Positions 23,946-57,677 of a DNA stretch of 64,000 nt are shown here, piece after piece. The position numbers and the translations under genes are program-made. Origin of the DNA: Escherichia coli (GTDB taxonomy: Bacteria; Pseudomonadota; Gammaproteobacteria; Enterobacterales; Enterobacteriaceae); assembly GCF_051903065.1 (NCBI RefSeq), contig NZ_CP178438.1; one strand, 5' to 3'. Position 1 is the first letter of the stretch. The number at the start of each line of letters is the position of its first letter. The notes beneath the pieces are model-generated. The model was not told the origin of the DNA, made no database searches, and saw nothing but the letters and a program-made list of their open reading frames with translations.

Positions 23946-24805
23946 CTCCTGAACTACCAGAGTTTTTATACAAACTCGAAAACTACACCGGCAGTATTGT
24001 AACCCGTGAAGCTACAAAATTGTTGATGCTCACAGGGCTGAGAACAGTAGAATTACGTATGGGGGAATGGTGTGAGATCGATTTTACCCAAAAGATATGG
24101 GAAGTTCCTCCGACCCGGATGAAAATGAGGAAGGAGCATATCGTCCCTCTGTCAGATCAGGCAATCCAGTCTCTGCAAATCCTCAAAGAACTGACTGGAA
24201 GATACAGATACATCTTTGCCGGAAGAAATGATGTTAACAGGCCTATCAGCGATGCAAGCGTCAATATGGTTTTGAAGAAGATTGGCTATGACAAAAAAGC
24301 TACCGGGCATGGATTTCGTCATACAATGAGTACTGTTCTACACGAGCAAGGATTCAATAGTGCATGGATTGAAATGCAACTTGCACATACGGACAAAAAC
24401 AGCATTCGTGGTACATACAACCATGCTCGTTACCTTGAAGGAAGACGAGAAATGATGCAATGGTACGCTGACTACCTTGATGCTCTTCGAAAAGAGTCAC
24501 CAGCTATATAATCGCTTGATTTTAAAGGCTGACTTAACGATATCCCCCTGATAGTCATTTATCAGTTATCTAATTATTAAGTCAGCCATAATCCCCTAAG
24601 TATCATTCCTTAATCAGATTCAGCACCTTGTAATACGACCGGTTAATTTAGAAAGAGACGATAGATAAACGCTTATGATGAAATACTAAGAAATTACTTC
24701 AGGCTCTATTAACTGGAGCTGTAATAGACAATAATTTAAATAACGCAATAGTTATATTTATATCTTAATATAAATTTCCACTGTATTTAAGGTAATGACT
24801 CCAAC

Positions 24806-25309
24806 TTATTGATAGTGTTTTATGTTCAGATAATGCCCGATGACTTTGTCATGCAGCTCCACCGATTTTGAGAACGACAGCGACTTCCGTCCCAGCCGTG
24901 CCAGGTGCTGCCTCAGATTCAGGTTATGCCGCTCAATTCGCTGCGTATATCGCTTGCTGATTACGTGCAGCTTTCCCTTCAGGCGGGATTCATACAGCGG
25001 CCAGCCATCCGTCATCCATATCACCACGTCAAAGGGTGACAGCAGGCTCATAAGACGCCCCAGCGTCGCCATAGTGCGTTCACCGAATACGTGCGCAACA
25101 ACCGTCTTCCGGAGCCTGTCATACGCGTAAAACAGCCAGCGCTGGCGCGATTTAGCCCCGACATAGCCCCACTGTTCGTCCATTTCCGCGCAGACGATGA
25201 CGTCACTGCCCGGCTGTATGCGCGAGGTTACCGACTGCGGCCTGAGTTTTTTAAGTGACGTAAAATCGTGTTGAGGCCAACGCCCATAATGCGGGCTGTT
25301 GCCCGGCAT
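24806..25309 (-). CDS. insB: IS1 InsB
   Basis: 167-aa [19 protein letters not shown]... Confidence 0.9.
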
Positions 25310-25503
25310 CCAACGCCATTCATGGCCATATCAATGATTTTCTGGTGCGTACCGGGTTGAGAAGCGGTGTAAGTGAACTGCAGTTGCCATGTTTTACGGC
25401 AGTGAGAGCAGAGATAGCGCTGATGTCCGGCGGTGCTTTTGCCGTTACGCACCACCCCGTCAGTAGCTGAACAGGAGGGACAGCTGATAGAAACAGAAGC
25501 CAC
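25228..25503 (-). CDS. insA: IS1 InsA
   Basis: 91-aa [43 protein letters not shown]... Confidence 0.9.
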
Positions 25504-25535
25504 TGGAGCACCTCAAAAACACCATCATACACTAA

Positions 25536-25937
<402 letters not shown>

Positions 25938-26033
25938 CATGCATCACAACAGCTCCTCATAGGCACTCAGTGGTCGATGTTCCACCTGACTGATCTGCTG
26001 CCAGAGCGGGGCGTGAGGTTCCGGTACTATCTG

Positions 26034-26330
26034 CTAGCCAGACGACACTGAGCAGAGGCGATGTGAGGCCACCAGTTTCTCATTACTGTAGATCCGCAAC
26101 TCATCGTTCAGCGATATTCGTATCGAGACTGGCTGACCACACAGCATTTCGGGAACGCTGTACTGATTACCTCCAACTTCGTTATAGCGGGTCCCAGGAC
26201 ACATGGCGGATGTCGAAGTAACTGGTATCGAAGTCTGTATCCGGTAACGGCTGCAGATGTTCCTGCTCCAGCGCGAAGCGCTGTTCCGGCGTTTCTTTGA
26301 ACTGACGAAGCTCCCATTTGTCAGCCACAT
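26034..26330 (-). pseudogene. IS21-family IstA transposase C-terminal fragment (opposite orientation to the istB fragment)
   Basis: ...YSVPEMLCGQPVSIRISLNDELRIYSNEKLVASHRL... resembles IstA C-terminus; frame disrupted upstream. Confidence 0.4.
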
Positions 26331-26616
26331 CGGCTAGCGCCAGCTAACCTATGCGGTACTGGCCTTGGTGCTAACCCGCGTTAAAGCTACCACGTTGATC
26401 AGAGCCTCTCTCCCGGAAAGTCATACTGTCTTACATATTAATCACTCAAAATAGAGTAAATAAAATCATACAACTAGAGAGTGATTATAATTGTTATTGA
26501 ACACTGGTTATCCCATTTTTGTTATATTGATCACAAAACCCTTCTTTTTATGATGATCTAAAAATAAATATTAAATATTGTGGTCAGGCCGCTAGACCAC
26601 AATAAGAGGAAATATC

Positions 26617-27906
26617 ATGAAAAGAAAAACCATGGGGTGGATTATCGTTTTTCTTCTGTTTATAGTTTACATGCTGAACTATATGGATCGTTCTGCATTA
26701 TCGATTACGGCCCCACTTATCGAAAAAGAGTTAGGCTTTAATGCTGCTGAAATGGGGATGATTTTCAGCGCATTTTTCGTTGGTTATGCTTTATTTAACT
26801 TCATTGGCGGTTGGGCCAGTGACAAAGTTGGACCCAAAACAGTATTTTTGGTTGCTGCACTGTTGTGGTCTGTTTTTTGTGGTATGACCGGTCTGGTCAC
26901 CGGATTATGGACAATGCTTGCCGTACGTGTTTTATTTGGTATGGCAGAGGGCCCGGTTAGTGCAGCAGGAAATAAAATTATTAATAACTGGATCTCGCGT
27001 AAAGAGTCGGCAACAGCTATCGGTATTTTTAGTGCTGGTTCACCACTTGGTGGCGCTATTTCTGGTCCGGTCGTTGGCTTGCTGGCAATATCACTTGGCT
27101 GGCGTCCGGCGTTTGGGATCATATTTATATTTGGCCTAGTTTGGGTATTACTGTGGTACTTCTTTGTCAGTGATAAACCGTCAAAAAGTAAACGTCTGGC
27201 AGCGGAAGAACGTGTCGATTTCGAAAACCATGACGATATTATTCTAGCCGAAGATGGTAAAGGTACACCTTCGCTTGGTTATTACATGAAGCAGCCGATG
27301 GTATGGGCGACCACGCTGGCATTTTTTAGCTATAACTATATTCTATTTTTCTTTCTTACTTGGTTTCCAAGCTATTTGAATCATTCATTACACATTGATA
27401 TTAAAGAAATTAGTATTGCAACTGTTATCCCGTGGTTTATTGGGGCAATTGGCATGGTGTTAGGTGGCGTCTGCTCTGACTTTATTTATCGTATTACGGG
27501 AAATGCCTTACTTTCTCGCCGTTTAATTCTCGGCAGTTGCCTTGCGGGGGCCGCGGTTTGTGTCGCTGTTTCCGGAACTGTTACCTCTATTGGTAGTGCG
27601 ATTACGCTGATGTCTGTTTCCTTATTCCTGCTTTATCTAACTGGACCTATTTATTGGGCTGTTATTCAGGATGTAGTGCATAAAGATAAAGTAGGTAGCG
27701 TAGGCGGTGCGATGCACGGTCTGGCAAATATTTCCGGCATTATTGGTCCATTGGTAACCGGTTTTATTGTCCAGTTCAGTGGTAAATATGATTACGCATT
27801 CTATCTTGCAGGTGCCATAGCAATCATTTCAAGTCTGCTGGTATTCATTTTTGTTAAAAATAAAGGATTGAAATTCAATGAAAGTCAAAGCTGTGTACAT
27901 CAATAA
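26617..27906 (+). CDS. MFS transporter, anion:cation symporter (sugar-acid) family
   Basis: 429-aa 12-TM ORF; N-terminus LNYMDRSALSITAPLIEKELGFNAAEMGMIFSAFF... resembles hexuronate/galactonate-type ACS transporters. Confidence 0.75.
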   Translation: MKRKTMGWIIVFLLFIVYMLNYMDRSALSITAPLIEKELGFNAAEMGMIFSAFFVGYALFNFIGGWASDKVGPKTVFLVAALLWSVFCGMTGLVTGLWTMLAVRVLFGMAEGPVSAAGNKIINNWISRKESATAIGIFSAGSPLGGAISGPVVGLLAISLGWRPAFGIIFIFGLVWVLLWYFFVSDKPSKSKRLAAEERVDFENHDDIILAEDGKGTPSLGYYMKQPMVWATTLAFFSYNYILFFFLTWFPSYLNHSLHIDIKEISIATVIPWFIGAIGMVLGGVCSDFIYRITGNALLSRRLILGSCLAGAAVCVAVSGTVTSIGSAITLMSVSLFLLYLTGPIYWAVIQDVVHKDKVGSVGGAMHGLANISGIIGPLVTGFIVQFSGKYDYAFYLAGAIAIISSLLVFIFVKNKGLKFNESQSCVHQ

Positions 27907-28903
27907 ACCTGGTGAAATTGCTACCCGTCTGGTCGATTATCCAGTAAGAAAAGATAATGAAGTTTTAATTAAAGTGGATGCAGCGGGAATTTGTGGTTCT
28001 GACATCGGTGCATTTCGTGGTACTAACCCACTGGTAACTTATCCGAGAATTATTGGACATGAAGTCACCGGGATTGTTCTGGAAACCGGTGAGGGGGTAC
28101 CACAAAATATCAAACAGGGCGACCGGGTTATTGTAGATCCCTATGTTTATTGCGGTCACTGTTATCCATGTTCTGTAGGTAGAACTAATTGCTGCGAGAA
28201 CTTAAAAGTCATCGGCGTACATATTGATGGCGCTATGCAAGAAGTGGTTTCGCATCCGGCTCACTTAATTCACAAAATTCCTGACAATGTACCGTCAGAG
28301 ATGGCGCCACTGGCTGAACCCTTAACTATTGCCCTACACGCATTACATCGAGCGCAATTGAAAGCAGGTGAACATGTCGTCATTATTGGTGCAGGCGCTA
28401 TTGGACTTATGGCGGCCCTGAGTTCGTTGAACTATAAAGCAACTCCCATTCTGGTTGATATTGTCGATGAACGGTTGCAATACGCGAAATCGCTCGGCGT
28501 ACCTTATGTAGTAAACTCCGCAAAAGCTAATGTTATTGAGGCAGTGAAAGATATTACACAAGGGACGATGGCTCAGGTTGTGGTGGAAGCCTCTGGTGCA
28601 AATAGCGCAATCAGAAGTACCCTGGATCTGGCCTCATTTGCAGGGCGTATAGCCTATACTGGTTGGCCAAAGCAGGAAACATCGTTACCAACTAATCTAA
28701 TTACCTTTAAAGAACTAGATTTACGTGGTTCCCGTACCAGTGCCGGTGAATTTGAAGAAGCCCTGCAAATGTTATCAACGCTGAATATTAATCCGGCTGA
28801 TATCGTGAGCAAAGTCGTGACAATAGATGAAGTTCCTGAGGCTGTAAAAGAGTTAGATCAATTTCCGGAACGCTATCTGAAAATTAACGTGAAATTCATT
28901 TAA
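27878..28903 (+). CDS. Zn-dependent medium-chain alcohol/polyol (sugar-acid) dehydrogenase
   Basis: 341-aa ORF with GHEVTG zinc-binding motif, CGHCYPC structural-zinc cysteines and GAGAIG Rossmann motif; overlaps transporter by 29 bp. Confidence 0.8.
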   Translation: MKVKAVYINKPGEIATRLVDYPVRKDNEVLIKVDAAGICGSDIGAFRGTNPLVTYPRIIGHEVTGIVLETGEGVPQNIKQGDRVIVDPYVYCGHCYPCSVGRTNCCENLKVIGVHIDGAMQEVVSHPAHLIHKIPDNVPSEMAPLAEPLTIALHALHRAQLKAGEHVVIIGAGAIGLMAALSSLNYKATPILVDIVDERLQYAKSLGVPYVVNSAKANVIEAVKDITQGTMAQVVVEASGANSAIRSTLDLASFAGRIAYTGWPKQETSLPTNLITFKELDLRGSRTSAGEFEEALQMLSTLNINPADIVSKVVTIDEVPEAVKELDQFPERYLKINVKFI

Positions 28904-47968: not shown

Positions 47969-48736
47969 GGTAATGACTCCAACTTATTGATAGTGTTTTA
48001 TGTTCAGATAATGCCCGATGACTTTGTCATGCAGCTCCACCGATTTTGAGAACGACAGCGACTTCCGTCCCAGCCGTGCCAGGTGCTGCCTCAGATTCAG
48101 GTTATGCCGCTCAATTCGCTGCGTATATCGCTTGCTGATTACGTGCAGCTTTCCCTTCAGGCGGGATTCATACAGCGGCCAGCCATCCGTCATCCATATC
48201 ACCACGTCAAAGGGTGACAGCAGGCTCATAAGACGCCCCAGCGTCGCCATAGTGCGTTCACCGAATACGTGCGCAACAACCGTCTTCCGGAGCCTGTCAT
48301 ACGCGTAAAACAGCCAGCGCTGGCGCGATTTAGCCCCGACATAGCCCCACTGTTCGTCCATTTCCGCGCAGACGATGACGTCACTGCCCGGCTGTATGCG
48401 CGAGGTTACCGACTGCGGCCTGAGTTTTTTAAGTGACGTAAAATCGTGTTGAGGCCAACGCCCATAATGCGGGCTGTTGCCCGGCATCCAACGCCATTCA
48501 TGGCCATATCAATGATTTTCTGGTGCGTACCGGGTTGAGAAGCGGTGTAAGTGAACTGCAGTTGCCATGTTTTACGGCAGTGAGAGCAGAGATAGCGCTG
48601 ATGTCCGGCGGTGCTTTTGCCGTTACGCACCACCCCGTCAGTAGCTGAACAGGAGGGACAGCTGATAGAAACAGAAGCCACTGGAGCACCTCAAAAACAC
48701 CATCATACACTAAATCAGTAAGTTGGCAGCATCACC
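47969..48736 (-). mobile_element. IS1 copy 2 (768 bp; insB 47984..48487, insA 48406..48681), no target-site duplication
   Basis: Same ends as copy 1; flanks catcagacc vs ggctgttta do not match. Confidence 0.9.
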
Positions 48737-48890
48737 GGCTGTTTATGCTACCCGATTCTCAAATCAATTACCGAAAGCTTCTGTTCATCAACTAACTCAT
48801 TACTTTTAATGATGGGGCCCTTTCTGGGGCCCAAGAAATTAACAACGCTAACAAACAACATAAATAACAATAAATTAAATAAAAAATTTC

Positions 48891-48909
48891 ATTCCTGCAG
48901 GGGACACCA
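48891..48909. repeat. attR: 19-bp direct repeat of the argW 3' end (attcctgcaggggacacca) marking the island boundary
   Basis: Exact match to 22061..22079. Confidence 0.8.
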
Positions 48910-49350
48910 GATACCCTTCAAACCAAATCTACCTTCATCCCGTAAACGATGGGTTTGGCAGCACACTTGCCCTATATCTACTCATTTTTACTGCAACAGG
49001 TTGAAATCTCAGCACTGTCAGAAAGCGCTGATGACTAAACAGCCCTGGGCCGGGCGATGTAACCATCACACAGAATCCTGATAGCGAAATATGGCGTGAC
49101 TCGATACTTCACTCCGCAATGCATTCCTTGATGAATTCGCAGGCCCGTGATACACGCGACAGGTCGCTGAATGACGACAATGTCCTGGAAATCAGCGAAC
49201 CGTGTATCCGGAGTACATTTGAGCGACTGTACCAGAACATGAATGAGGTGTTTGGATTAGGCGATTATTAGCAGGGCTAAGCATTTTACTATTATTATTT
49301 TCCGGTTGAGGGATATAGAGCTATCGACAACAACCGGAAAAAGTTTACGT

Positions 49351-50598
49351 CTATATTGCTGAAGGTACAGGCGTTTCCATAACTATTTGCTCGCGTTTTT
49401 TACTCAGGAAGAAAATGCCAAATAGCAACATCAGGCAGACAATACCCGAAATTGCGAAGAAAACTGTCTGGTAGCCTGCGTGGTCAAAGAGTATCCCAGT
49501 CGGCGTTGAAAGCAGCACAATCCCAAGCGAACTGGCAATTTGAAAACCAATCAGAAAGATCGTCGACGACAGGCGCTTATCAAAGTTTGCCACGCTGTAT
49601 TTGAAGACGGATATGACACAAAGTGGAACCTCAATGGCATGTAACAGCTTCACTAATGAAATAATCCAGGGGTTAACGAACAGCGCGCAGGAAAGGATAC
49701 GCAACGCCATAATCACAACACCGATAAGTAATGCATTTTTTGGCCCTACCCGATTCACAAAGAACGGAATAATCGCCATGCACAGCGCTTCGAGTACCAC
49801 CTGGAATGAGTTGAGATAACCATACAGGCGCGTTCCTACATCGTGTGATTCGAATAAACCTGCATAAAAGACGGGAAAAAGTTGTTGATCAAAAATGTTA
49901 TAGAAAGACCACGTCCCAACAATAAATATGACGAAAACCCAGAAGTTTCGATCCTTGAAAACTGCGATAAAATCCTCTTTTTTTACCCCTCCCGCATCCG
50001 CCGCTACGCACTGGTGATCCTTATCTTTAAAACACATGTTGATCATCATAAATACAGCGCCAAATAGCGAGACCAACCAGAAGTTGATATGGGGACTGAT
50101 ACTAAAAAATATGCCGGCAAAGAACGCGCCAATAGCATAGCCAAAAGATCCCCAGGCGCGCGCTGTTCCATATTCGAAATGAAAATTTCGCGCCATTTTT
50201 TCAGTGAAGCTGTCAAGCAAACCGCAGCCCGCCAGATAACCCAGGCCAAAAAAGAGCGCACCCAGAATTAAACCTACAGAAAAATTGCTTTGCAGTAACG
50301 GTTCATAAACGTAAATCATAAACGGTCCGGTCAAGACCAGGATGAAACTCATACACCAGATGAGCGGTTTCTTCAGACCGAGTTTATCCTGAACGATGCC
50401 GTAGAACATCATAAATAGAATACTGGTAAACTGGTTGACCGAATAAAGTGTACCTAATTCCGTCCCTGTCAACCCTAGATGTCCTTTCAGCCAAATAGCG
50501 TATAACGACCACCACAGCGACCAGGAAATAAAAAAGAGAAATGAGTAACTGGATGCAAAACGATAGTACGCATTTCTGAATGGAATATTCAGTGCCAT
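49351..50598 (-). CDS. cscB: CscB sucrose:H+ symporter (MFS, 415 aa)
   Basis: ORF MALNIPFRNAYYRFASSYSFLFFISWSLWWSLYAIWLKGHLGL... matches recalled CscB. Confidence 0.85.
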   Translation of the reverse strand: MALNIPFRNAYYRFASSYSFLFFISWSLWWSLYAIWLKGHLGLTGTELGTLYSVNQFTSILFMMFYGIVQDKLGLKKPLIWCMSFILVLTGPFMIYVYEPLLQSNFSVGLILGALFFGLGYLAGCGLLDSFTEKMARNFHFEYGTARAWGSFGYAIGAFFAGIFFSISPHINFWLVSLFGAVFMMINMCFKDKDHQCVAADAGGVKKEDFIAVFKDRNFWVFVIFIVGTWSFYNIFDQQLFPVFYAGLFESHDVGTRLYGYLNSFQVVLEALCMAIIPFFVNRVGPKNALLIGVVIMALRILSCALFVNPWIISLVKLLHAIEVPLCVISVFKYSVANFDKRLSSTIFLIGFQIASSLGIVLLSTPTGILFDHAGYQTVFFAISGIVCLMLLFGIFFLSKKREQIVMETPVPSAI

Positions 50599-50669
50599 AA
50601 TTACCTGCCTGTCGTTAAAAAATTCACGTCCTATTTAGAGATAAGAGCGACTTCGCCGTTTACTTCTCA

Positions 50670-51584
50670 CTATTCCAGTTCTTGTCGACATGGCAGCGCT
50701 GTCATTGCCCCTTTCGCCGTTACTGCAAGCGCTCCGCAACGTTGAGCGAGATCGATAATTCGTCGCATTTCTCTCTCATCTGTAGATAATCCCGTAGAGG
50801 ACAGACCTGTGAGTAACCCGGCAACGAACGCATCTCCCGCCCCCGTGCTATCGACACAATTCACAGACATTCCAGCAAAATGGTGAACTTGTCCTCGATA
50901 ACAGACCACCACCCCTTCTGCACCTTTAGTCACCAACAGCATGGCGATCTCATACTCTTTTGCCAGGGCGCATATATTCCGATCGTTCTGTGTTTTTCCA
51001 CTGATAAGTCGCCATTCTTCTTCCGAGAGCTTGACGACATCCGCCAGTTGTAGCGCCTGCCGCAAACACAAGCGGAGCAAATGCTCGTCTTGCCATAGAT
51101 CTTCACGAATATTGGGATCGAAGCTGACAAAACCTCCGGCATGCCGGATCGCAGTCATCGCAGTAAATGCGCTGGTACGCGAAGGCTCGGCAGACAACGC
51201 AATTGAACAGAGATGTAACCATTCGCCATGTCGCCAGCAGGGCAAGTCTGTCGTCTCTAAAAAAAGATCGGCACTGGGGCGGACCATAAACGTAAATGAA
51301 CGTTCCCCTTGATCGTTCAGATCGACAAGCACCGTGGATGTCCGGTGCCATTCATCTTGCTTCAGATACGTGATATCGACTCCCTCAGTTAGCAGCGTTC
51401 TTTGCATTAACGCACCAAAAGGATCATCACCGACCCGACCTATAAACCCACTTATTCCGCCTAATCTGGCGATTCCCACCGCAACGTTAGCTGGCGCGCC
51501 GCCAGGACAAGGCAGTAGGCGCCCGTCTGATTCTGGCAAGAGATCTACTACCGCATCCCCTAAAACCCATACTTTGGCTGACAT
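50670..51584 (-). CDS. cscK: CscK fructokinase (304 aa)
   Basis: pfkB-family sugar kinase ORF with GAGDAF motif, between cscB and cscA. Confidence 0.85.
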   Translation of the reverse strand: MSAKVWVLGDAVVDLLPESDGRLLPCPGGAPANVAVGIARLGGISGFIGRVGDDPFGALMQRTLLTEGVDITYLKQDEWHRTSTVLVDLNDQGERSFTFMVRPSADLFLETTDLPCWRHGEWLHLCSIALSAEPSRTSAFTAMTAIRHAGGFVSFDPNIREDLWQDEHLLRLCLRQALQLADVVKLSEEEWRLISGKTQNDRNICALAKEYEIAMLLVTKGAEGVVVCYRGQVHHFAGMSVNCVDSTGAGDAFVAGLLTGLSSTGLSTDEREMRRIIDLAQRCGALAVTAKGAMTALPCRQELE

Positions 51585-51799
51585 TTTTTTCCCTTAAATT
51601 CATCTGACTTACGCATAGTGATAAACCTCTTTTTCGCAAAATCGTCATGGATTTACTAAAACATGCATATTCGATCACAAAATGTCATAGTTAACGTTAA
51701 CATTTGTGATATTCATCGCATTTATGAAAGTAAGGGACTTTATTTTTATAAAAGTTAACGTTAACAATTCACCAAATTTGCTTAACCAGGATGATTAAA

Positions 51800-53233
51800 A
51801 TGACGCAATCTCGATTGCATGCGGCGCAAAACGCACTAGCAAAACTTCATGAGCACCGGGGTAACACTTTCTATCCCCATTTTCACCTCGCGCCTCCTGC
51901 CGGGTGGATGAACGATCCAAACGGCCTGATCTGGTTTAACGATCGTTATCACGCGTTTTATCAACATCACCCAATGAGCGAACACTGGGGGCCAATGCAC
52001 TGGGGACATGCCACCAGCGACGATATGATCCACTGGCAGCATGAGCCTATTGCGCTAGCGCCAGGAGACGATAATGACAAAGACGGGTGTTTTTCAGGTA
52101 GTGCTGTCGATGACAATGGTGTCCTCTCACTTATCTACACCGGACACGTCTGGCTCGATGGTGCAGGTAATGACGATGCAATTCGCGAAGTACAATGTCT
52201 GGCTACCAGTCGGGATGGTATTCATTTCGAGAAACAGGGTGTGATCCTCACTCCACCAGAAGGAATCATGCACTTCCGCGATCCTAAAGTGTGGCGTGAA
52301 GCCGACACATGGTGGATGGTAGTCGGGGCGAAAGACCCAGGCAACACGGGGCAGATCCTGCTTTATCGCGGCAGTTCATTACGTGAATGGACTTTCGATC
52401 GCGTACTGGCCCACGCTGATGCGGGTGAAAGCTATATGTGGGAATGTCCGGACTTTTTCAGCCTTGGCGATCAGCATTATCTGATGTTTTCCCCGCAGGG
52501 AATGAATGCCGAGGGATACAGTTACCGAAATCGCTTTCAAAGTGGCGTAATACCCGGAATGTGGTCGCCAGGACGACTTTTTGCACAATCCGGGCATTTT
52601 ACTGAACTTGATAACGGGCATGACTTTTATGCACCACAAAGCTTTGTAGCGAAGGATGGTCGGCGTATTGTTATCGGCTGGATGGATATGTGGGAATCGC
52701 CAATGCCCTCAAAACGTGAAGGCTGGGCAGGCTGCATGACGCTGGCGCGCGAGCTATCAGAGAGCAATGGCAAACTCCTACAACGCCCGGTACACGAAGC
52801 TGAGTCGTTACGCCAGCAGCATCAATCTATCTCTCCCCGCACAATCAGCAATAAATATGTTTTGCAGGAAAACGCGCAAGCAGTTGAGATTCAGTTGCAG
52901 TGGGCGCTGAAGAACAGTGATGCCGAACATTACGGATTACAGCTCGGCACTGGAATGCGGCTGTATATTGATAACCAATCTGAGCGACTTGTTTTGTGGC
53001 GGTATTACCCACACGAGAATTTAGACGGCTACCGTAGTATTCCCCTCCCGCAGCGTGACACGCTCGCCCTAAGGATATTTATCGATACATCATCCGTGGA
53101 AGTATTTATTAACGACGGGGAAGCGGTGATGAGTAGTCGAATCTATCCGCAGCCAGAAGAACGGGAACTGTCGCTTTATGCCTCCCACGGAGTGGCTGTG
53201 GTGCAACATGGAGCACTCTGGCAACTGGGTTAA
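51800..53233 (+). CDS. cscA: CscA sucrose-6-phosphate hydrolase / invertase (GH32)
   Basis: ORF ...HLAPPAGWMNDPNGLIWFNDRYHAFYQHHP... with the WMNDPNG GH32 motif; start set at MTQSRLH. Confidence 0.85.
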   Translation: MTQSRLHAAQNALAKLHEHRGNTFYPHFHLAPPAGWMNDPNGLIWFNDRYHAFYQHHPMSEHWGPMHWGHATSDDMIHWQHEPIALAPGDDNDKDGCFSGSAVDDNGVLSLIYTGHVWLDGAGNDDAIREVQCLATSRDGIHFEKQGVILTPPEGIMHFRDPKVWREADTWWMVVGAKDPGNTGQILLYRGSSLREWTFDRVLAHADAGESYMWECPDFFSLGDQHYLMFSPQGMNAEGYSYRNRFQSGVIPGMWSPGRLFAQSGHFTELDNGHDFYAPQSFVAKDGRRIVIGWMDMWESPMPSKREGWAGCMTLARELSESNGKLLQRPVHEAESLRQQHQSISPRTISNKYVLQENAQAVEIQLQWALKNSDAEHYGLQLGTGMRLYIDNQSERLVLWRYYPHENLDGYRSIPLPQRDTLALRIFIDTSSVEVFINDGEAVMSSRIYPQPEERELSLYASHGVAVVQHGALWQLG

Positions 53234-53240
53234 CATAATA

Positions 53241-54236
53241 TCAGGTGGAACAACGGATCAACAGCGGGCAAGGGATCCGCGTCACACTTCCCCCTTCACG
53301 ACCTTCAATAATATGCAATGCAGCTTCCCGCCCGATAATGTCATGTGGAAGCTGAATTGTGGTCAGCGGCGGTAAAAACAGATGCCCGACGCCAACCAGA
53401 TTATCAAAGCCCATTACGGCGACATCCTGCGGGATACGTACCCCCTTAGCCAGGAGAACCTGATAAGCCACAAAGGCTGCGCGATCGTTACCACATATCA
53501 GAACATCAAAATCTGGTTTGCCCGATTTGAAGTGGTCATTGAGTAAACTTGCGAGATCGGTGTAGTGATCATCACCTGTTGCCATGTGAAATTGTTTCAC
53601 CTCAGCCAGATCTCGTCCAGCATCACGCCAGGCCTGCTCAAATCCCTGCCGACGATACCCTGTTGCCAACGCACTTTCCGGTAGCCAGAAGCATAACGGT
53701 TGACGATAGCCCGCCGCGAGCAAATGCTGTGTTGATTCATATTGTGCAGTGTAATCATCAGGGATATAACTGGGTAACGCTGGGTCATCCGCCACACAGT
53801 TCGCCAATACAATATTTTCACCATACAGAGACTCAGGTAGCGTGATATGTCGCAGCCCCATTGTAGTATAGATAATGCCATCCGGACGGTGGGCAAGCAG
53901 CTGACGTGCCGCGCGGGCAGCGTCATCTTCAGAAAAAATATTGATTAAAAAACTATTCCAGCCGAACTCGCTGGCGGTTTGCTCAATGGCAAGCAGAATA
54001 TCAACAGAGAAAGGAGTGGTAGCAGTGTCCTGCGCCAGCACGGCGAGAGTCGACGGCTTACGTCCTTGAGCGCGCATCTTACGGGCGGAAAGATCAGGAA
54101 CATAATTCAGGGTCTGGATTGCCTGCAATACGCGGTCACGCGTTGCAGGACGCACAGATTCTGCATTATGCATCACCCGGGAGACTGTCATCATCGACAC
54201 TCCCGCCAGGCGTGCGACATCCTTTAATGAAGCCAT
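53241..54236 (-). CDS. cscR: CscR LacI-family sucrose operon repressor (start at MASLKDVARLAGVS)
   Basis: N-terminal HTH MASLKDVARLAGVSMMTVSRVMHN plus periplasmic-binding-like effector domain; track ORF over-extended upstream. Confidence 0.8.
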   Translation of the reverse strand: MASLKDVARLAGVSMMTVSRVMHNAESVRPATRDRVLQAIQTLNYVPDLSARKMRAQGRKPSTLAVLAQDTATTPFSVDILLAIEQTASEFGWNSFLINIFSEDDAARAARQLLAHRPDGIIYTTMGLRHITLPESLYGENIVLANCVADDPALPSYIPDDYTAQYESTQHLLAAGYRQPLCFWLPESALATGYRRQGFEQAWRDAGRDLAEVKQFHMATGDDHYTDLASLLNDHFKSGKPDFDVLICGNDRAAFVAYQVLLAKGVRIPQDVAVMGFDNLVGVGHLFLPPLTTIQLPHDIIGREAALHIIEGREGGSVTRIPCPLLIRCST

Positions 54237-54454
54237 ACCCAAGCCGTTTGCCGTAAAACGGGCACTGTAGCAGAAACAGACGTCACTGGCGAGATCCAAC
54301 GCCCTATCACCTGACACGGCAATACAATAAAAAATAACAATAATTCCCGGACAATTGTCCCCAATTCCGCCTCTGTTCTCGCCAACGAGTAACCATATAG
54401 GCAAGTAAGTAAAACATGCCAACTGGCATCGCCAACCTGGAGAAGAAAATATAA

Positions 54455-54685
54455 ATATGGATCATTGTGCTGCCGCTGTATCCCGACATCAGCCCGGAAA
54501 TTATTGCGATTGCTATCGGTTCAGGCGCGATTGGCTGCACGATCGTTACGGACTCGCTTTTCTGGCTGGTGAAGCAATATTGCGGCGCTACGCTCAATGA
54601 AACATTTAAATACTATACGACAGCGACATTTATCGCTTCAGTCGTCGCTCTGGCGGGCACATTCCTGCTGTCATTTATCATCTAA
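54455..54685 (+). pseudogene. dsdX: DsdX D-serine permease, 3' remnant (last ~75 codons)
   Basis: In-frame ...[54 protein letters not shown]... immediately upstream of dsdA; no 5' part or dsdC present. Confidence 0.7.
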
Positions 54686-54702
54686 GCGCAAAGAGACGTA
54701 CT

Positions 54703-56031
54703 ATGGAAAACGCTAAAATGAACTCGCTCATCGCCCAGTATCCGTTGGTAAAGGATCTGGTTGCTCTTAAAGAAACCACCTGGTTTAATCCTGGCACGAC
54801 CTCATTGGCTGAAGGTTTACCTTATGTTGGCCTGACCGAACAGGATGTTCAGGACGCCCATGCGCGCTTATCCCGTTTTGCACCCTATCTGGCAAAAGCA
54901 TTTCCTGAAACTGCTGCCACTGGGGGGATTATTGAATCAGAACTGGTTGCCATTCCGGCTATGCAAAAACGGCTGGAAAAGGAATATCAACAACCGATCA
55001 GCGGGCAACTGTTACTGAAAAAAGATAGCCATTTGCCCATTTCCGGCTCCATAAAAGCACGCGGCGGGATTTATGAAGTCCTGGCACACGCAGAAAAACT
55101 GGCTCTGGAAGCGGGGTTGCTGACGCTTGATGATGACTACAGCAAACTGCTTTCTCCGGAGTTTAAACAGTTCTTTAGCCAATACAGCATTGCTGTGGGC
55201 TCAACCGGAAATCTGGGGTTATCAATCGGCATTATGAGCGCCCGCATTGGCTTTAAGGTGACAGTGCATATGTCTGCTGATGCCCGGGCATGGAAAAAAG
55301 CGAAACTGCGCAGCCATGGCGTTACGGTCGTGGAATATGAGCAAGATTATGGTGTTGCCGTCGAGGAAGGACATAAAGCAGCGCAGTCTGACCCGAACTG
55401 TTTCTTTATTGATGACGAAAATTCCCGCACGTTGTTCCTTGGGTATTCCGTCGCTGGCCAGCGTCTTAAAGCGCAATTTGCCCAGCAAGGCCGTATCGTC
55501 GATGCTGATAACCCTCTGTTTGTCTATCTGCCGTGTGGTGTTGGCGGTGGTCCTGGTGGCGTCGCATTCGGGCTTAAACTGGCGTTTGGCGATCATGTTC
55601 ACTGCTTTTTTGCCGAACCAACGCACTCCCCTTGTATGTTGTTAGGCGTCCATACAGGATTACACGATCAGATTTCTGTTCAGGATATTGGTATCGACAA
55701 CCTTACCGCAGCGGATGGCCTTGCAGTTGGTCGCGCATCAGGCTTTGTCGGGCGGGCAATGGAGCGTCTGCTGGATGGCTTCTATACCCTTAGCGATCAA
55801 ACCATGTATGACATGCTTGGCTGGCTGGCGCAGGAAGAAGGTATTCGTCTTGAACCTTCGGCACTGGCGGGTATGGCCGGACCTCAGCGCGTGTGTGCAT
55901 CAGTAAGTTACCAACTGATGCACGGTTTCAGCGCAGAACAACTGCGTAATGCCACTCATCTGGTGTGGGCGACGGGAGGTGGAATGGTGCCGGAAGAAGA
56001 GATGAATCAATATCTGGCAAAAGGCCGTTAA
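54703..56031 (+). CDS. dsdA: DsdA D-serine dehydratase (442 aa)
   Basis: [34 protein letters not shown]... with PLP-lysine motif SGSIKARGG. Confidence 0.9.
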
Positions 56032-56138
56032 TAACATTTCAACGCAGCATCGCCATCCTTTCCCTGGGTGAGCGATGCTGCCGATGGCGCAGACTTAAGA
56101 TCCCCGGTCTTACCCGCTATAACCCCCTGCTTTTACCA

Positions 56139-57677
56139 TCACCCAACGCCTTTCGCTGTAAACGGCGGTTTCGCAAACCAAACCAAAACCGTAAGTAAGA
56201 TAAAAGCAATAGCCGCCATACGGAAAATCTCATTTGCAGAAATAGAAAGTGACTGCTGGGTTATTTCATTATTAATTTCATTAAGAACTCCTGAAAGCGA
56301 ACCATAGTATTTATCCATAATTTGTGACGATGAATTAAACACAGGGTTAAATTGATCGATGGTTGCTGTCAACTGACTATGGTGTAACGATTCGCGTCGC
56401 CCCCACAGCGTCATTGTCAACGACGTACCAACTGATCCTGACAAGGTACGAAAAAAATTACTCATACTCGAGGCATTGGCAAATTTATTATCTGGCAACC
56501 CTGAAAACGAAATCGTTGTTAAGGGTAAAAAGAAACAGGCAACGGCGAACCCCTGGAAAAACTGTGGCAAAATGATGCCTGTAAAATCAATCGTTGGCAT
56601 AAATGTCACAGAACGCCAGTAATAGCAAACCGCATACATCAAAAAACTAAATGTCACTAACAACCGCATGTCTATTTTGTTGCCATAACGTCCTATCAAA
56701 GGTGAAATTAATAGTGGCATGATGCCGATGGGCGCATAAGCAAGTCCGGCCCATATCGCATTATACCCCATCGTTTCCTGGAGTAACTGCGGCATAAGGA
56801 CGATCGCTCCAGAGTAAAATAAATACGCGCATGTGATACTCACTATACCAATGGTGAAATTACGGGACTTAAACAAACTGAGATCAAGAATCGGGTTCTC
56901 TGAGGTCGACTCCCAAATGACTAAAGAGATCAGAGAAATAACTGATACTACTGTTAATATTATTATTGTACTCGAGTTGAACCAATCCAGATCGCGCCCT
57001 TTATCAAGCATAATTTGCAAGCCACCAACACCGAGCACTAACAGGGTCAGTCCTGGTAGATTCATTTTGACCGGTGAAGTCTCAGTTTCTCTTCCTTTAA
57101 GTAAGGTTAAGCATAATGTCAGGACGATAATACCCATAGGGACATTGATTAAAAATATCCAACCCCAGCTAAAGTTATCGCAAATATATCCGCCTAATAT
57201 CGGCCCACATATCGGAGCTATAATCACGGTCATTGACCATAATGCCAGAGCAAATGTTCTTTTTTCTGGTGGATAATTCCTTAATAATAAACTCTGTGAC
57301 AGTGGAATTAACGGCCCTGCCATTAACCCCTGAACGACTCTAAAAAATATCAACACATCAAGATTGGTCGATAAACTACACATTAAGGAAGACAGCGAAA
57401 AAAAAGTGACTGAAAGTAAAAATAACCTTAATTCGCCTATTCTTTGTGCCAGCCTGCCGGTAACAGGGATCGCAATGGCATTTGCTACGCCAAACGAGGT
57501 GATAACCCAGGTGCCTTCGTCTGTTGATGCTCCCAGAAAGCCAGATATTGTCGGTATTGCGACGTTAGAAATAGTGGAATCCAACATTTGCATAAACGTC
57601 GCTAATGACAATGCAATAGTGACGCACCATAACGTCCCACCGGTTAATGGTGCTGGAGTTGATTTAGTGATTGCCAT
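56139..57677 (-). CDS. emrY: EmrY multidrug efflux MFS transporter (512 aa)
   Basis: 14-TM MFS ORF downstream of emrK. Confidence 0.85.
   Translation of the reverse strand: MAITKSTPAPLTGGTLWCVTIALSLATFMQMLDSTISNVAIPTISGFLGASTDEGTWVITSFGVANAIAIPVTGRLAQRIGELRLFLLSVTFFSLSSLMCSLSTNLDVLIFFRVVQGLMAGPLIPLSQSLLLRNYPPEKRTFALALWSMTVIIAPICGPILGGYICDNFSWGWIFLINVPMGIIVLTLCLTLLKGRETETSPVKMNLPGLTLLVLGVGGLQIMLDKGRDLDWFNSSTIIILTVVSVISLISLVIWESTSENPILDLSLFKSRNFTIGIVSITCAYLFYSGAIVLMPQLLQETMGYNAIWAGLAYAPIGIMPLLISPLIGRYGNKIDMRLLVTFSFLMYAVCYYWRSVTFMPTIDFTGIILPQFFQGFAVACFFLPLTTISFSGLPDNKFANASSMSNFFRTLSGSVGTSLTMTLWGRRESLHHSQLTATIDQFNPVFNSSSQIMDKYYGSLSGVLNEINNEITQQSLSISANEIFRMAAIAFILLTVLVWFAKPPFTAKGVG

Follow-up and report, generated by a model that had tools for sequence, protein, structure and literature searches.

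The csc regulon located between argW and dsdA of Escherichia coli has reportedly been treated by Bockmann in 1992, Jahreis in 2002, Moritz and Welch in 2006 and Connolly in 2015. In E. coli EC3132, W and O157:H7 EDL933 it has the same four genes as the locus studied here, in the same order and orientation and with two 12-bp operators, and occupies the same chromosomal position, followed by a truncated dsdX and then an intact dsdA. K-12 and UPEC CFT073 carry an intact dsdCXA, the D-serine tolerance locus, of which dsdC and dsdX nt 1-1120 are absent here. The tRNA gene argW has been described as a hot spot where dsdC and part of dsdX are replaced by csc (PMC4366372, PMC3032704, PMC11251922). The csc locus of E. 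coli type is hardly found outside this species; the Cf_csc cluster of Citrobacter freundii encodes homologous proteins of the same non-PTS pathway, but cscA and cscR are each inverted and its DNA is too diverged for blastn (Stephens 2024, PMC11251922). The dsd system does not function in the absence of DsdC, and D-serine is then toxic (PMC7486766, PMC4366372); D-serine use has been lost in E. coli W (PMC3032704). The csc/dsdCX polymorphism and its phenotype of D-serine sensitivity, silent dsdA and slow csc-dependent growth on sucrose have been published (1979, 2002, 2006, 2015, 2020, 2024). So has its significance: sucrose use is acquired at the cost of D-serine catabolism, which is of use in urine and brain, and the polymorphism has been linked to the restricted niche of LEE-positive intestinal pathogens, since D-serine represses their type III secretion system.

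Here we analyse positions 48910-56031 of a 64-kb window, the whole stretch of DNA that was available. Its cscBKAR cluster, adjoining argW in place of dsdC and most of dsdX, is a known E. coli variant, and we are highly confident that the interval is best explained as the standard csc-positive / dsdCX-negative haplotype of the argW-dsdA interval. Nothing was found against this identification. The original prediction had likewise called the arrangement a known polymorphism, in agreement with the literature and with its being a common haplotype in complete genomes. The csc part comprises the following features.

49351-50598, minus strand: cscB, sucrose:H+ symporter (LacY-like MFS), 415 aa, intact; TIGR00882, 593.6 bits; RefSeq WP_001197016.1
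50670-51584, minus strand: cscK, pfkB-family fructokinase, 304 aa, intact; NF006957, 505.6 bits (cut-off 450)
51691-51702 and 51755-51766: putative CscR operators in the control region between divergent cscK and cscA, each a copy of the 12-bp palindrome GTTAACGTTAAC
51800-53233, plus strand: cscA, sucrose hydrolase/invertase (GH32), 477 aa, intact; TIGR01322 (scrB_fam), 479 bits
53241-54236, minus strand: cscR, LacI-family repressor, 331 aa, intact; LacI-family matches
54237-54467: spacer of 231 bp of csc-side origin, presumed cscR promoter region, without K-12 homology, ending at the right junction

CscB, CscK and CscA pass their NCBIfam cut-offs, and the csc gene names agree with the RefSeq annotation of a record identical to this locus. 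According to ORF coordinates and strands, the cscKB operon is divergent from cscA, with which cscR is convergent across a gap of 7 bp. Family profiles, ORFs and the K-12 alignment thus bear out the predicted gene identities, the order cscB-cscK / cscA / cscR and the placement between argW/attR and dsdA. Compared to known csc strains only allelic differences are found, 1-4 aa in CscK (in which the DSTGAGD motif is kept) and in CscA, with another argW occupant upstream. CscB shows 100% amino acid identity to that of O157:H7 F8492, cscR is identical in DNA and protein to that of O157:H7 F8492 and D8, and the CscA translation shows the motifs WMNDPNG, RDP and EC. The spacer, found in 2691 genomes, has a 12-bp deletion relative to O157:H7. 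Inactivating mutations were looked for in the csc genes and none was found, all reading frames being uninterrupted. The GTTAACGTTAAC pair fits the 'two copies of a 12 bp inverted repeat' of the csc regulon, as Jahreis 2002 is quoted in PMC11251922. A scan of 48700-56300 for promoters and terminators was uninformative, giving 2 promoter-like sites where 11 were expected and 14 terminator-like sites where 8.2 were, and an Rfam scan of 48500-56400 at the gathering threshold gave no RNA family.

The steps by which the locus would act are drawn from published work on the same arrangement. Sucrose would be imported with H+ by CscB and split by CscA into glucose and fructose, the latter being phosphorylated by CscK, and, as long as sucrose is not abundant, CscR would act on the two GTTAACGTTAAC operators to repress the divergent cscKB and cscA promoters. 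The original prediction expected sucrose use to be gained, which has to be tempered because, in isolates that have only csc, sucrose supports slow growth or none, even where the genes are intact (PMC11251922). The csc genes could even be intact but phenotypically cryptic here, sucrose being used very slowly or not at all, with no real gain to offset the loss of dsdCX. In M9 sucrose most csc-only isolates were indeed classified as 'slow' or 'very slow' and five did not grow, four of these without a visible defect in the locus (PMC11251922); moreover, with cscR and both operators intact, repression at low sucrose is to be expected here. All csc ORFs and catalytic motifs are intact, however, with CscB and CscR identical to those of an O157:H7 strain, and in the EHEC lineage sucrose as sole carbon source supports growth until csc is deleted (PMC7486766). 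We regard a cryptic locus as a possibility with perhaps one chance in a few.

Downstream of the spacer only part of the dsd locus is left.

54468-54685, plus strand: 'dsdX, remnant of the gene for the D-serine permease (last 218 nt, 72 codons), without start codon and without promoter
54703-56031, plus strand: dsdA, D-serine ammonia-lyase, 442 aa, intact ORF; TIGR02035, 809.6 bits

By blastn and tblastn K-12 homology restarts at 54468, corresponding to dsdX nt 1121, within codon 374 of 445. The remnant matches positions 374-445 of 445 of profile NF007395 and is called a pseudogene by RefSeq. A dsdX remnant had been predicted, but as the last ~75 codons from 54455; its true start lies 13 bp further right. 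The last 218 nt of dsdX, dsdA and the downstream emrYK-evgAS are collinear with K-12 and 98.45% identical. The predicted loss of dsdC and of 5' dsdX (nt 1-1120), with dsdA kept, is confirmed by the K-12 alignment, by tblastn and blastn, and by the ORF. Searches with tblastn and blastn gave no match to dsdC or a second dsdX elsewhere in the 64-kb window, hence no intact copy lies nearby. The same holds for two complete genomes that match the locus for 100%, close relatives rather than the source strain itself, from which dsdC and 5' dsdX are absent: a chimeric query hit one place per record and no plasmid. Regarding a functional dsdCXA, dsdC is thus absent, full-length dsdX (445 aa) is absent and dsdA is intact. 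DsdA is identical to crystallised E. coli DsdA (PDB 3SS7) at 439 of 442 residues, differing by R224H, Q405L and T417A; R224H and Q405L are private to this DsdA, at positions where E. coli and Salmonella otherwise agree. The SGSIKARGG region, which we take to be the site of the PLP-binding lysine, Lys118, is unchanged relative to 3SS7.

Loss of dsdC and dsdX nt 1-1120 deprives the locus of both the permease and the DsdC-dependent promoter of dsdXA. With neither activator DsdC nor dsdX promoter, dsdA would be transcriptionally silent, while D-serine would still enter through other transporters and act bacteriostatically. Detoxification of D-serine is therefore expected to be impaired in this strain, as the literature reports for this arrangement. 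Alternatively, dsdA might not be silent, either because an internal promoter is kept in the 3' end of dsdX or by sucrose-induced read-through from cscA, in which case detoxification would be only partly impaired. That an intact dsdA ORF is kept across the csc-positive genomes examined would fit such expression, but in EHEC, where the genes are arranged likewise, the reporter signal of wild-type cscAp-dsdA fragments was low and cells were D-serine sensitive until cscR was deleted (PMC7486766), hence we think it unlikely. Silence of dsdA, the reading we prefer, appears reversible in the csc-positive arrangement, as deletions in the cscR region reactivated the gene by read-through from cscAp (PMC7486766). 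Here too cscA and dsdA share a strand, with only antisense cscR in between, and a ~1.1 kb deletion over cscR could put dsdA under the cscA promoter and bring back D-serine tolerance, as in EHEC. What this window adds is only the correct annotation of the strain: csc-positive, dsdCX-negative and probably D-serine sensitive.

The left side of the locus is defined by the following features.

22005-22079, plus strand: argW, tRNA-Arg(CCU), found by ARAGORN; its 3' end is the integration site, with attL core 22061-22079
48891-48909, plus strand: attR ATTCCTGCAGGGGACACCA, an exact 19-bp direct repeat of the argW 3' end 22061-22079
48976-49271, plus strand: decayed, internal fragment of a DUF4942 gene, frameshifted and with an internal stop, corresponding to about aa 38-151 of 280

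K-12 homology stops at 22080, the end of argW. From there to 48909 an IS-riddled island is found, of which attR marks the right end; in the annotation of a near-identical genome, a truncated integrase is present at the equivalent position beside argW. A fragment of a yeeU-family antitoxin lies left of attR. An ORF across attR (48809-49081, 90 aa) matches no NCBIfam or Pfam family and was discarded as spurious. Given the position of attR, the csc-side interval does start directly after it, as predicted, yet its first 441 bp, 48910-49350, had been counted as csc and hold the decayed DUF4942 fragment instead. The fragment matches Pfam PF13708 with 40.3 bits (gathering cut-off 25, E=3.4e-10), over profile positions 5-62 of 190 only, and RefSeq annotates 49089-49271 as a DUF4942 ORF of 60 aa. 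Its recognisable part is spread over two reading frames and interrupted by a stop, and a full-length, uninterrupted gene (~280 aa) is absent. Since it lies between attR and cscB, the left csc junction is placed at ~49263-49350. Alignment with K-12, proposed for mapping the junctions, gave 54468 for the right one; the left one, placed by the DUF4942 fragment, falls inside the predicted range ~48910..49350.

CP4-type tRNA islands have a distal module of yeeS, yeeT, yeeU/cbeA, cbtA, DUF5983, DUF957 and DUF4942. In UPEC_U013 the DUF4942 gene is the last intact gene of such a module, with only an IS110 fragment before kpsF. The relic has 73-74% DNA and 46-49% translation identity to this full-length gene (blastn, tblastn). 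It differs from the genes of CP4-type islands in being internal and frameshifted, unaccompanied by integrase or other island genes and outside the present attR. Whether 48910-49100 derives from an older element, as its left arm, was also considered. The sequence after attR aligned to that after argW in the window and in K-12 with scores of 18 and 16, no better than shuffles (mean 16.7, sd 2.6), and only a 9-mer was shared at the same offset, hence we do not count this comparison as evidence.

One place covering at least 80% of a 7.8-kb query of the locus was found in 2645 of 5426 complete E. coli genomes. The relic occurs at a coverage of at least 80% in 2627 genomes, about the number of csc-positive genomes; it is co-inherited with csc. 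The haplotype adjoins an empty argW in EC11, a P22-like prophage in O157:H7, a CP4-like island in D8 and the IS-riddled island here. In these four strains, empty site included, collinearity covers both the stretch between att core and cscB and the cscR-'dsdX junction; the latter is identical, and the dsdX breakpoint is the same in all four contexts aligned. Since csc lies beside unrelated argW occupants, the csc replacement and the island are independent events; since the replacement is found in about half of the species, with one and the same breakpoint in every aligned context, it is older than the strain-specific island. The original prediction of at least two independent events at argW-dsd is thereby upheld, but the csc insertion, which it named the second, is so in position and not in time.

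It could be argued that the present argW island brought in the csc genes as cargo, so that a single insertion would suffice. The csc genes are directly beside that island, and the yeeU-family fragment left and the DUF4942 relic right of attR are ordered as in one CP4-type island. However, the exact 19-bp att repeat lies between island and csc, in empty-argW strains the same 441 bp and csc come directly after the tRNA gene (in EC11 argW itself at the position of attR), and the same haplotype occurs next to the unrelated P22-like prophage and CP4-like island. Given attR and the empty-site strains we rule out cargo of the present island, which we consider extremely improbable.

With the csc replacement taken as separate from the present island, the relic at 48976-49271 points to a third, older CP4-type island, and its position between attR and cscB suggests at least three events at argW-dsd. 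On balance we lean towards a layered history of three or more events, in which the 441 bp from att core to cscB are the last trace of this older island, csc was captured at or carried on its distal end with the left breakpoint in the DUF4942 gene, and the island's attR, dsdC and 5' dsdX were removed in one event ancestral to all csc-positive E. coli. A single ancestral replacement would have inserted a module of ~5 kb (cscB-cscK, cscA, cscR and control regions; at most 49263-54467), displacing dsdC, dsdX nt 1-1120 and the distal part of the older argW island. The bulk of that older island would have been lost afterwards, leaving the 296-bp DUF4942 relic beside the att core; we infer the order of older island, csc capture and island deletion solely from this relic. 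Much later, a different island would have entered argW and decayed by IS insertions (22080-48909), and the attR so made now adjoins the relic. The relic is a small historical detail, but it sets the left csc breakpoint inside the older island rather than at the att site.

The genes of 49351-56031 were identified by means of an ORF listing and family scans, and are given here with the other features of the argW-dsdA region.

Features of the argW-dsdA region in the window
22005-22079: argW
32848-36345: intact autotransporter gene, 1165 aa
39140-39811: FadR/GntR-family regulator gene
49351-50598, minus strand: cscB, 415 aa; oligosaccharide MFS transporter (TIGR00882, 593.6 bits)
50670-51584, minus strand: cscK, 304 aa; fructokinase (NF006957, 505.6 bits, cut-off 450)
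51691-51702 and 51755-51766: two copies of the palindrome GTTAACGTTAAC, cscK-cscA intergenic region
51800-53233, plus strand: cscA, 477 aa counted from the annotated ATG; scrB family, 479 bits
53241-54236, minus strand: cscR, 331 aa; LacI family
54468-54685: 'dsdX, 72-codon ORF; matches only positions 374-445 of the 445 in the DsdX profile
54703-56031, plus strand: dsdA, 442 aa; TIGR02035, 809.6 bits

One RefSeq genome shows 100% identity across 48400-56200 and uses exactly the same gene names. cscB, cscK, cscA and cscR each run from a proper start codon to a proper stop codon without interruption by a stop; inactivating csc mutations, against which the original prediction of a sucrose module had cautioned, were not found in these four intact reading frames. 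CscB and CscR are 100% identical to their counterparts in O157:H7 F8492; compared with three other csc-positive strains, CscK and CscA show 1-4 residue differences. The GH32 motifs WMNDPNG, RDP and EC are present in CscA and the pfkB motif DSTGAGD is readable in CscK. The two GTTAACGTTAAC copies agree with the E. coli csc operators, two 12-bp operators that PMC11251922 credits to Jahreis et al. 2002.

Junctions were mapped using K-12 MG1655, argW through evgS, as reference. Homology stops at 22080 and restarts at 54468, which is dsdX nt 1121, within codon 374; from there 54468-61501 aligns unbroken with 98.45% identity. Hence 218 nt of dsdX (72 codons and the stop) survive in their original place, with 17 bp between them and dsdA, and RefSeq lists this piece as a pseudogene without N-terminus. 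A remnant had indeed been predicted, but as ~75 codons at 54455..54685, which is 13 bp off at the start and three codons off in length. Queries with K-12 DsdC and DsdX (tblastn, blastn) identified nothing besides 'dsdX in the 64-kb window, and with it no intact dsdC or dsdX nearby. A chimeric query, window 48737-50000 (1264 bp anchor) joined to 500 bp each from K-12 dsdC and 5' dsdX, ranked the complete genomes 23CRST027 and 23CRST031, identical at the locus, on top with one place per record, and had no matches among the plasmids of the collection. Judged at megablast sensitivity, these two isolates, which are close relatives of the window strain and distinct from it, lack dsdC and 5' dsdX anywhere.

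The dsdA gene is intact, as had been claimed, and its sequence has no sign of pseudogenisation; the product shares 439 of 442 residues with the E. coli DsdA of crystal structure 3SS7. R224H and Q405L are private to the window allele among five sequences compared, being absent from K-12, O157:H7, EC11 and D8, and structures of Salmonella DsdA also have R and Q at these positions; T417A yields the Salmonella residue. R224H and Q405L might reflect relaxed constraint on a silent gene, two changes being too few to judge.

The last 19 nt of argW, ATTCCTGCAGGGGACACCA, recur exactly once, at 48891-48909, which places attR just ahead of 48910, where it was expected. The first 441 bp of the noted interval 48910-56031, up to cscB, are something other than csc. 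The translation of 49053-49271 matches Pfam DUF4942 with 40.3 bits (cut-off 25, profile positions 5-62 of 190), and in searches with DNA the homology reaches back to 48976. In UPEC_U013 a full-length DUF4942 gene (280 aa) follows yeeU-cbtA-DUF5983-DUF957 as the last intact gene of the module; of this protein the window's relic retains just aa ~38-151, split over two frames and with an internal stop. K-12, aligned from argW to evgS, lacks the relic, while 2627 genomes, in essence the csc-positive ones, contain it at a coverage of at least 80%. This short relic suggests that the left csc breakpoint lies at ~49263-49350 and falls within the distal gene of an older island, which would since have been almost wholly deleted. 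The interval would then record at least three events, namely that older island, the replacement by csc and the island found there today.

Among 5426 complete E. coli genomes, 2645 have at least 80% of a 7.8-kb query covered by a single place, and the 231-bp cscR-'dsdX spacer occurs in 2691. Four argW contexts were aligned.

Occupants of argW in four csc-positive contexts
Window: IS-riddled island
O157:H7 F8492: P22-like prophage
D8: CP4-like island with Ag43, yeeS, yeeT and yeeU
EC11: no island (yfdC-argW-441 bp-cscB)

The stretch from the att core through cscB is collinear and the dsdX junction identical in all four, so the csc replacement is most simply explained as a single old event whose result about half of the species now carries. 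In these alignments argW occupancy varies independently of the replacement. This supports the prediction that the locus was hit at least twice independently; csc as a "second insertion" stands as a separate event, although in time it preceded the island.

All the sequence features that define the E. coli csc regulon at argW-dsdA are present, whereas of an intact dsdCXA locus only intact dsdA is. The arrangement is already known, on record since Alaeddinoglu & Charles 1979, then Jahreis 2002, Moritz & Welch 2006 and Connolly 2015, as cited in PMC7486766, PMC11251922, PMC4366372 and PMC3032704. The original reading of csc/dsdCX was correct except for minor shifts in coordinates and the attR-cscB relic. 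Function and phenotype we infer from literature on the identical arrangement. Two papers report this substitution, likewise at the argW hot spot, together with lost D-serine use (PMC4366372, PMC3032704). The window shares the geometry of PMC7486766, cscA (+), cscR (-), 'dsdX-dsdA (+), in which dsdA is silent yet functional and deletions of cscR restore D-serine catabolism by letting the cscA promoter, or a promoter upstream, drive dsdA. Csc occurs in about 35-37% of isolates, with near-universal carriage in phylogroups B1, D and E; isolates that have csc only show slow or no growth on sucrose, some without visible genetic defect (PMC11251922). Sucrose use was thus likely, though not assuredly, gained.

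A 12-bp indel at 54297/54298, ACGAAATTCTCG, is present in O157:H7 and absent from the window, EC11 and D8. The window spacer allele is found in ~706 genomes at ≥99%, versus ~1768 at 90-95%. Located 61 bp before the cscR start codon, the indel could affect cscR expression.

The 9-mer AAATCTACC lies at 22095-22103 and 48925-48933, at equal offset (+16 to +24) past the att core at argW and attR, where the flanks as a whole align no better than shuffled sequence; it could be chance or an integrase arm-site remnant.

The argW island (22080-48909) is a heavily decayed mosaic, with a truncated integrase adjoining argW and copies or fragments of IS903B, IS3, IS30 (two copies), IS66, IS911 and IS1. The IS1 ending at 48736 interrupts a yeeU-family antitoxin gene, of which only the final 73 bp (48737-48809) remain ahead of attR. 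The best complete-genome match, 23CRST027 (NZ_AP045789.1), is not identical: the window has 4.7 kb extra at 23948-28696 and at ~31790 lacks a ~1.06-kb segment annotated there as an IS903B copy. The alignment stops at 60445, just before an IS5 cutting evgS in 23CRST027; the window is collinear with K-12 across ~60446.

Four GenBank records labelled "complete phage genome" and 43-47 kb long (ON470594, ON470608, ON470622 and ON470589) also carry the relic and csc genes at one end. The csc stretch begins at the att core just past an excisionase gene; in the record inspected, ON470594.1, classed as Lederbergvirus (P22-like), it lies at 4001-9729 and extends into 'dsdX. Either the prophage calls were drawn too long in these records, or the records represent products of aberrant excision; the latter would provide a csc transfer route via argW phages.
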